Source: Escherichia coli (lineage in GTDB: Bacteria; Pseudomonadota; Gammaproteobacteria; Enterobacterales; Enterobacteriaceae). Taken from it: 64,000 bases of DNA. The notes under the pieces are model-generated. The model made no database searches. It saw only the letters and a program-made list of their open reading frames with translations, and was not told the origin of the DNA. The DNA is taken from NCBI RefSeq assembly GCF_044647545.1, contig NZ_CP172818.1. One strand, 5' to 3'. The position numbers were made by a program, and so were the translations under genes. How positions within the stretch are numbered: position 1 is the stretch's first letter; every line of letters starts with the position of its first letter. This document shows, piece by piece, positions 17,614 through 19,427 of the stretch.

Positions 17614-19427
17614 ATGAGCAAAATATCAGGTTGGAATTTTTCTCAACACATTACATCAGCCGACAATTTTAAACAAAAAAGTGAAGTTTTAAATACCTGG
17701 CGTGTTGGAATGAATAATTTTGCCCATAATGCCGAGGGGCAGGATAATACAAGAAATATCCTTGATCCTAAGACATTTTTGGAGTTTTTGGTAAAAATAT
17801 TTACCCTGGGTTATGTGGATTTTAGCAAACGCTCCAACGAAGCGGGAAGAAATATGATGGCTCATATTGAGTCCTCATCTTATATCAAAAATAATGATGG
17901 CAGTGAGATAATGAAGTTTGTTATGAATAATCCTGAAGGGGAACGAGCGGATTTATCTAAGGTGGAAATAGAAATTACACTTTCCACTATCACTACTATG
18001 GGGACTCGTCAAGGACATACAGCCATTATATTTCCACAATCTGATTTTTTGAGTTTTCGTTATGAAGGTAAGTCTTTTGAAAGAAAAGATGATAGTTCAT
18101 TACACCTGATTACTAACAAGGTTCTGGCGTGTTACCAACGCGAAGCTAACAAGGAAATAACGCGTCTATTAAATAATCATCAGAAGTTAAATAATCGTCA
18201 GAAGTTAAATAATCTACAGAAGTTAAATAATCTACAGAAGTTAAATAATCTACAGAAGTTAAATAATCTACAGAAGTTAAATAATCTGCAGAAGTTAAAT
18301 AATCTCAGAAGTTAAATAATTCGCAGGAGTTAAATAATCCGCAGGAGTTAAATAATCCGCAGGAGTTAAATAATTCTCAGGACTTAAATAACTCGCAGGT
18401 GAGTTGTAAAGGTTCAGTTGATTCTACGATTACGGATTTATTAGAAAAACCATTAAATAATGCATTATTAGCAATAAGGAACGAACATCTGCTATTAATG
18501 CCTCATGTATGTGATGAATCGATTTCATACTTACTGGGCGAAAATGGTATACTTGATGAAATAGATAAGCTCTACGAATATGATCACGGAATTGATAATG
18601 ACAAAAAAGGTAACAATGAAATTAATGACATCATGATTAACCTGTCTCATATTCTTATTGATTCCTTAGATGATGCAAAGGTTAACCTTACACCGGTCAT
18701 CCATTCGATGTTGGTGACTTTTTTAGAATTGCCATATAATAATGATGTAAAAATACTGGAATGGTGTTTTAATAAAAGCATGCAATATTTTGATGATTCT
18801 GCAAAGATAAAGCATGCATGCTCCGTAATAAATCATATTAATCTTCTCAGCGATCAGTCTAAAATAGCTGAGGCATTATTTTTCAATCTCGATAAAGAAC
18901 CCTATAAAAATAGCCCTGAATTACAGGGGTTGATTTGGAATAAGTTGGTTGTATATGTCAATGATTTTAATTTAAGTAATCAAGAAAAATCACGCTTAAT
19001 ACTAAGGTTATTTGATGATGTTAAGTTGCTATTTAATGAAGTGCCTGTCAGCATTTTAGTAAATGACATTTTTTTGAAGGTTTTTTTCATGAAACAACCT
19101 GATTTTGCTCAGCGGTACTTCTATCAATTACTTAAGAAGTATGAGGGCGAACAGCTGTATCTTAATGAGTTAGGATATGTTTTTGGTGATGAGGAAAAAA
19201 CAAAAGAAATTGTAAATAAACTTCCGGGTTATGACGTTAAGATTTTTGAAGAAAAGATCGATAATGAATTAAAAATTAGAACAAGAATGATGAAAATCCT
19301 CCAGAATGGCAAAATTAATATATATGAATATATTAATAAAGAACAGCTAGAAAAATTAAATCCTCCGGAAAATTTACGTATAACAATAGAAAAATTTGGC
19401 TGGAAGAAAAAAACTATCACTGCATAA
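17614..19427 (+). pseudogene. yjgL: yjgL-like gene split by a -1 frameshift inside its tandem repeat (233-aa and 342-aa frames)
   Basis: Frame 1 ORF 17614..18315 stops in the repeat; frame 3 ORF continues to 19427; the two sum to about the ~604 aa recalled for intact YjgL; AT-rich. Confidence 0.7.
18178..18392 (+). repeat. Twelve tandem 18-bp units (NNNcagaagttaaataat; hexapeptide xQ[K/E]LNN); unit 8 is 17 bp
   Basis: Units counted directly: 7 perfect-frame units, then ctc-agaagttaaataat missing one base (18304..18320), then 4 caggagttaaataat-type units. Confidence 0.9.

Follow-up and report, generated by a model that had tools for sequence, protein, structure and literature searches.

Is the gene yjgL of the Escherichia coli strain analysed here broken in the cell, or is it broken only in the assembled sequence? 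This question is raised by a stretch of 64,000 nucleotides (contig NZ_CP172818.1 of the NCBI RefSeq assembly GCF_044647545.1), referred to as the window in the following, in which yjgL (17614..19427, plus strand, 1814 bp) is split into two reading frames. The gene is orthologous to icaR of Shigella. Its frame is disrupted by a deletion of 1 bp within a tandem array of 18-bp units, in which one unit has a length of only 17 bp. The original prediction, which had been made from the letters of the window, recommended a comparison with yjgL from other E. coli genomes. This comparison was carried out, and the deletion is private to the window sequence. A genuine mutation of this strain is by a small margin the most likely explanation considered, with a chance that we put at about even.

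The 5' reading frame begins with the ATG at 17614 and comprises 233 codons and a TAA stop codon (17614..18315, plus strand; taken from the list of open reading frames (ORFs) and their translations). Its product of 233 amino acids (aa) ends with LNNLRS; 7.5 hexapeptide repeats follow an N-terminal module in it, and the tail RS is read out of frame. The TAA at 18313..18315 (plus strand) is a premature stop codon that was created by the change of frame. The 3' part (18303..19427, plus strand) is located in the +2 frame, which is open for 374 codons and terminated by the stop codon at 19425..19427. Restoring one base yields a gene of 1815 bp, i.e. 604 codons and a stop codon, which is the length of yjgL from K-12. 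Outside of the repeat, the nucleotide sequence is identical to the intact 1,923-bp yjgL of strain ECONIH1 (549/549 and 1029/1029 nt, in total 1578/1578), and the amino acids of the 233-aa and the 374-codon segments are likewise identical to those of the ECONIH1 protein. Two adjacent ORFs of the same strand, which lie in different frames, jointly cover this intact protein, as is characteristic of a frameshifted pseudogene. These results bear out several statements of the original prediction: the gene is yjgL, as judged from its position and from the match of its sequence to ECONIH1 and K-12; frame 1 ends at 18313..18315 and the gene continues in another frame to 19427; and the two parts add up to about 604 aa.

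The first possible start codon in the 3' part is a GTG at 18399, from which a protein of 342 aa would be translated. Reinitiation at this codon was considered and is unlikely, because it has no usable Shine-Dalgarno sequence; the closest similar motif, AGGA, is found 16 nt upstream. It is appropriate to annotate the locus as one frameshifted pseudogene and not as two genes.

The repeat tract (18169..18401, plus strand) was split manually into 13 units of 18 bp, which code for LNNxQ[KE] hexapeptides. The units are composed of TTAAATAAT followed by either CTACAGAAG (K-type) or CCGCAGGAG (E-type), and the tract is flanked by a GAAATAACGCGTCTA-like anchor and a GTGAGTTGTAAAGG anchor. Tandem Repeats Finder located the array at 18169..18391 with a period of 18, 12.4 copies, 93% matches and 1% indels. 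Twelve of the 13 units have a length of exactly 18 bp; the exception is unit 8, which reads TTAAATAATCT-CAGAAG and comprises 17 bp (18295..18311, plus strand, in the register that places TTAAATAAT first). The base that is absent from unit 8 belongs between T18305 and C18306; it is an A or a G at the third position of a Leu codon. Unit 7 (18277..18294, plus strand) is a private variant, CTGCAGAAG, with a G at 18288 in place of the A found in the other K-type units, which changes CTA to CTG. The private changes in units 7 and 8 affect the same position of the unit and are 18 bp apart.

In the register used by the original prediction, the short unit corresponds to CTCAGAAGTTAAATAAT (17 bp, 18304..18320). 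It is preceded by CTGCAGAAGTTAAATAAT (18 bp), and the four units before that one are CTACAGAAGTTAAATAAT. The frameshift and the 17-bp unit that had been noticed at this place were both confirmed by the sequence and by the unit split. The accompanying statement that the neighbouring units contain ctg is true for the unit immediately upstream (ctgcag) but not for the other K-type neighbours, which contain ctacag.

The copy number of the repeat is variable. Tracts that share the allele background of the window contain 13 (window), 17, 19, 19, and 22 units, and 0 to 16 units were counted in other yjgL alleles. Compared to ECONIH1, the tract of the window has six units (108 bp) fewer and shows three substitutions in addition to the deletion. 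Natural tracts contain many point-variant unit types.

The rarity of the deletion was assessed in several collections. In 5,426 complete E. coli genomes, BLAST searches with the 17-bp junction in queries of 341, 73, and 55 nt gave no gap-free match; the best matches in these genomes all have one extra base, which means that the 73-nt query is aligned to 74 nt and the 55-nt query to 56 nt. A 30-nt sequence containing the junction was also compared with the GTDB representative genomes and the JGI metagenome contigs, without a single exact match. Among about 15 billion collected protein sequences, none is identical to the 233-aa product, and the search of the protein collection with this product retrieved many fragments from contig ends, none of which possesses the LNNLRS tail. 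A 55-mer around G18288, which was chosen such that every 28-mer seed includes this G, had no match in the 5,426 complete genomes. A control 55-mer with an A at 18288 matched in 912 genomes. As the control differs in one base only, the low-complexity filter is not the cause of the empty result. In 24 metagenome contigs, the position corresponding to the variant base of unit 7 is occupied by an A in 48 of 48 cases, and the spacing within the arrays is 18 bp in all 262 cases. The complete tracts in these contigs all have a length of 18n-3; the sole exception is the tract of the window with 230 bp. The periodicity is thus no product of chance.

Records that resemble the isolated 3' part were also inspected. 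The 342-aa ORF occurs on 23 contigs, and each of the ten scaffolds inspected has a gap of 100 N inside the repeat. The 342-aa records were therefore rejected as candidates for independent frameshifts. Furthermore, hundreds of YjgL fragments labelled as partial, which end in the tract, are present in NCBI and Logan. Given the gaps in all ten scaffolds and these partial fragments, it has to be concluded that the tract breaks short-read assemblies systematically. The ten scaffolds, which originate from metagenomes of the European Nucleotide Archive (L008-L017), carry the 3' part of the allele found in the window, and their 100-N gaps are located just upstream of the 342-aa ORF.

The gene yjgL (b4253 in K-12), the ortholog of which in Shigella is icaR, is AT-rich and was acquired horizontally. 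In the window, yjgL is located between a tabA (yjgK)-like ORF (17030..17491, plus strand) and the gene of ornithine carbamoyltransferase, argI/argF (19484..20488, minus strand). The order tabA-yjgL-argI is the same in K-12, ECONIH1, MLI114 and others. Since argI is convergent, no polarity of the truncation on neighbouring genes is expected. The GC content is 0.30-0.35 across 17500..19499, compared to 0.46-0.54 in the flanks. The protein has three parts: about 185 aa form an N-terminal module, a run of LNNxQ[KE] repeats of variable number follows, and a domain of about 340 aa makes up the C-terminal part. The yjgL genes of strains A10 and LAU-OXA are nearly identical to that of the window. The YjgL proteins of ECONIH1 and K-12 share 72% identical residues over their full length (643 aligned positions), and in an alignment of 214 aa, the 233-aa product of the window shares 76% identical residues with the S. 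flexneri IcaR cluster P0056, the length of which is also 233 aa. A search of Pfam profiles produced only a SopA-like match, which is insignificant (E = 0.12), and a search of the product against NCBIfam profiles assigned no family. A SopA-like match of the protein has also been reported previously (PMC9241512).

Shigella icaR (gem3) and E. coli yjgL have been described as orthologs; the gene has a low G+C content and was acquired horizontally (PMC9241512). IcaR is made only in the presence of MxiE/IpgC and is secreted by the type III apparatus via its residues 1-20, a secretion signal that was defined experimentally in Shigella (PMC9241512). In the alignment, residues 1-20 are present in the product of the window and resemble those of IcaR. 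At up to 3 mismatches, the window contains no match to GTATCGTTTTTTTANAG, a putative consensus of the MxiE box that may not correspond to the box of icaR. In E. coli lacking mxiE/ipgC, the gene is reported to be silent and possibly neutral (PMC9241512). In Shigella, the 3' end of icaR is truncated by insertion sequence (IS) elements, and IS truncations of the gene also occur in strains W, UMN026, and E2348/69 (PMC9241512). The lengths of the orthologs vary, with a median of 475 aa compared to 604 aa in K-12 (PMC9241512), and in S. flexneri 2457T the gene is a pseudogene (PMC9769918).

Decay of yjgL is frequent in nature: the gene is disrupted in about a third of the sampled genomes. Of the 4,817 genomes that gave a match, an even sample was drawn; among its 34 evaluable genes, 11 have a span that is not a multiple of 3 or contain an IS1 element. 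An IS1 insertion is also present in yjgL of ET201. Eight genes were inspected individually (M505, M217, AB66, CFSAN018748, SCU-171, SMS-3-5, 2010C_5028, and AVS0935), and all of them are annotated as frameshifted by the NCBI Prokaryotic Genome Annotation Pipeline. Their frameshifts are all located in the 3' half of the gene, and every repeat unit has a length of exactly 18 bp. Two runs of seven T (19069..19075 and 19081..19087, plus strand), which are intact in the window, are affected in other lineages. The second run is expanded by +1 to T8 in M505, M217, and AB66, and the first run in SMS-3-5 and AVS0935. Strains whose tracts differ in copy number (7, 8, and 9 units) have the event of the M505 type in common, which is therefore a fixed, real mutation.

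Is the base missing in the cell, or just in the assembly? Judged from the sequence, it would be missing in the cell with an even chance. According to the preferred reading, a genuine mutation, a single recombination or repair event between misaligned repeats could have reshaped the tract such that, compared to its closest relatives, it lacks six units, contains a hybrid unit 7, and has lost 1 bp in unit 8; all of these changes may have had this common origin. The tract evolves fast and natural tracts contain point-variant units, which lends plausibility to a complex event as well as to a private variant of a unit. A complex repair event of this kind is a possible origin of the deletion, whereas the association with slippage that the original prediction had considered has no support in its simple form: slippage by an 18-bp unit keeps the frame, and the lost base is not part of a homopolymer. 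The mutation could have persisted, as no selection on the gene can be detected in E. coli; in the absence of MxiE/IpgC, the gene is reported to be silent (PMC9241512), and it is broken in many lineages. Several observations weigh against a genuine mutation. The allele is a singleton across the collections, none of the eight natural frameshifts inspected is located inside the tract, and it is this tract that defeats short-read assembly. Both private changes are found at the boundary between K-type and E-type units, where mixed repeat pile-ups can have the same effect. Furthermore, the four point differences from ECONIH1 all fall into the 234-bp tract and none into the other 1578 bp; at a uniform rate, the chance of finding all four in the tract is about 3e-4.

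In an alternative reading, yjgL of the strain is intact, and the base was dropped when reads from the near-identical 18-bp units were misplaced in assembly, consensus calling, or short-read polishing, a process that perhaps also produced the CTG of unit 7. We consider the chance of such an artefact to be just short of even. It is favoured by the confinement of the differences to the tract, by the uniqueness of the deletion among all collections searched, and by the fact that every other tract examined is in frame, with all spacings and lengths as given above. The gapped short-read scaffolds with this 3' part and the abundance of partial fragments that end in the tract are also in agreement with it, as are the two adjacent changes at one unit position at the junction between CTACAGAAG and CCGCAGGAG. 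The novelty of the unit type CTGCAGAAG was considered as a further sign of an artefact, an argument that is weakened by the many point-variant units of natural tracts. However, an error would have to be strictly local. Compared to ECONIH1, positions 1..32267 of the window contain no other coding indel and only intergenic ones, at 1622-1629 and 26552, and positions 44000..64000 can be aligned to K-12 MG1655 in one piece (20,001 versus 20,001 nt, 99.9% identity). Across these approximately 52 kb of comparable sequence there is no further coding indel, and the assembly is therefore not error-prone in general. Moreover, a simple mixed pile-up should also mix positions 11 and 16, which distinguish the unit types; these are unmixed, and only position 12 is altered in units 7 and 8. 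The location of the deletion outside a homopolymer is a further point against a consensus error. As the shift is located in a tandem repeat and the gene is related to that of a secreted, effector-like protein, programmed -1 ribosomal frameshifting, transcriptional slippage, or an on/off contingency switch also come to mind, but apart from this general consideration nothing speaks for recoding or phase variation, and we regard it as extremely improbable. No in-frame heptamer of the type X XXY YYZ exists between 18046 and the stop codon at 18313; in-frame heptamers of this type occur only at 17688 and 18045, at least 268 nt upstream of the stop codon. The tract does not contain a homopolymer of seven or more bases, and a change in the copy number of the unit never switches the frame, because 18 is a multiple of 3. 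The other tracts examined are all in frame and no other genome has the shift. Recoding, transcriptional slippage, and phase variation were rejected on these grounds.

What would follow from a genuine mutation? Translation would end after 233 aa, with an expected product of about 27 kDa in place of about 69 kDa, and the C-terminal domain would not be made. The alternative formulated in the original prediction, a real inactivating mutation or a single-base error, stands as an either/or; the word inactivating is too strong, as the N-terminal module is retained completely in the 233-aa product, as in S. flexneri IcaR. It is conceivable, though improbable, that the deletion is real and that YjgL of this strain has become an N-terminal-only protein like IcaR, and thus represents another independent case of a convergent loss of the C-terminal SopA-like domain. 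In that case, the N-terminal module would be the part that is retained, and the variable tract would be a further site of truncation, used by imprecise repair of misaligned repeats. Any real deletion at this place would add a new position to the independent truncations that leave only the IcaR-like N-terminal module, which comprise the IS elements in Shigella, W, UMN026, and E2348/69 and the shifts in the T runs. Apart from that, a split copy of yjgL is ordinary, given that no role of the gene in E. coli is known, that it reportedly remains silent without MxiE/IpgC, and that it is often broken. More generally, the tract (0 to at least 22 units) breaks short-read assemblies, and single-base calls inside it need verification before they are interpreted.

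The surrounding sequence has a mosaic ancestry. Positions 1-32267 are 99.3-99.9% identical to ECONIH1, and positions 44000-64000, the region of the fec and yjh genes, can be aligned to K-12 MG1655 without gaps at 99.9% identity; among the RefSeq complete genomes, the best match over 6000-30000 reaches 98.5% overall. At 1622-1629, small deletions of 1, 3, and 3 bp relative to ECONIH1 are located in the AT-rich intergenic spacer between pmbA and cybC. At about 32267-32297, approximately 5.1 kb with idnR-idnT-idnO-idnD-idnK are absent compared to ECONIH1, such that the window runs from downstream of yjgR nearly straight to ahr. Downstream of a tRNA-Leu, positions 33554-43994 form an island with an integrase-like sequence and one IS30-like element (41645-42938), to which two copies correspond in ECONIH1. 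The island also contains fragments that match IS911- and IS600-type transposase pseudogenes of ECONIH1, and several deviations of 1 bp from this strain are located in genes that its annotation already lists as frameshifted.

With respect to known systems, yjgL of the window is most similar to YjgL and IcaR themselves, with which it shares the location between tabA and argI/argF, the three-part architecture, and the low GC content. Its product has the same length (233 aa) and the same architecture as IcaR, i.e. the N-terminal module and a few hexapeptide repeats. The 233-aa form of S. flexneri IcaR is made and secreted in Shigella (PMC9241512); the product of the window would lack the C-terminal domain of about 340 aa. 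The ways in which the genes were altered are different: in the window, the frame is broken in the repeat by a 1-bp deletion, whereas the 604-aa gene of K-12 is intact and Shigella IcaR results from an IS insertion and a 3' deletion. The published epitope of the anti-IcaR antibody, SDGSTNRYEGKSFERK, also differs in the product of the window, where it reads SDFLSFRYEGKSFERK.

The eight naturally frameshifted yjgL genes named above resemble the case described here in that the same gene, a dispensable and decaying locus, is split into two ORFs. Their frameshifts are located in the 3' half, several are T7 to T8 expansions that are common to many strains and therefore fixed in lineages, whereas the -1 shift of the window lies in the tract, affects a site that is not a homopolymer, and is private. 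With errors that arise in tandem repeats during assembly and polishing, the case has in common a single-base indel in near-identical units, the restriction to one assembly, and a tract that breaks short-read assemblies; the difference is that the rest of the window is free of such errors and the affected positions are not a simple mix of unit types. With contingency loci, the gene shares an intragenic tandem repeat of variable copy number. In contrast to these loci, its 18-bp unit keeps the frame, and the other tracts examined show no switching of frames.
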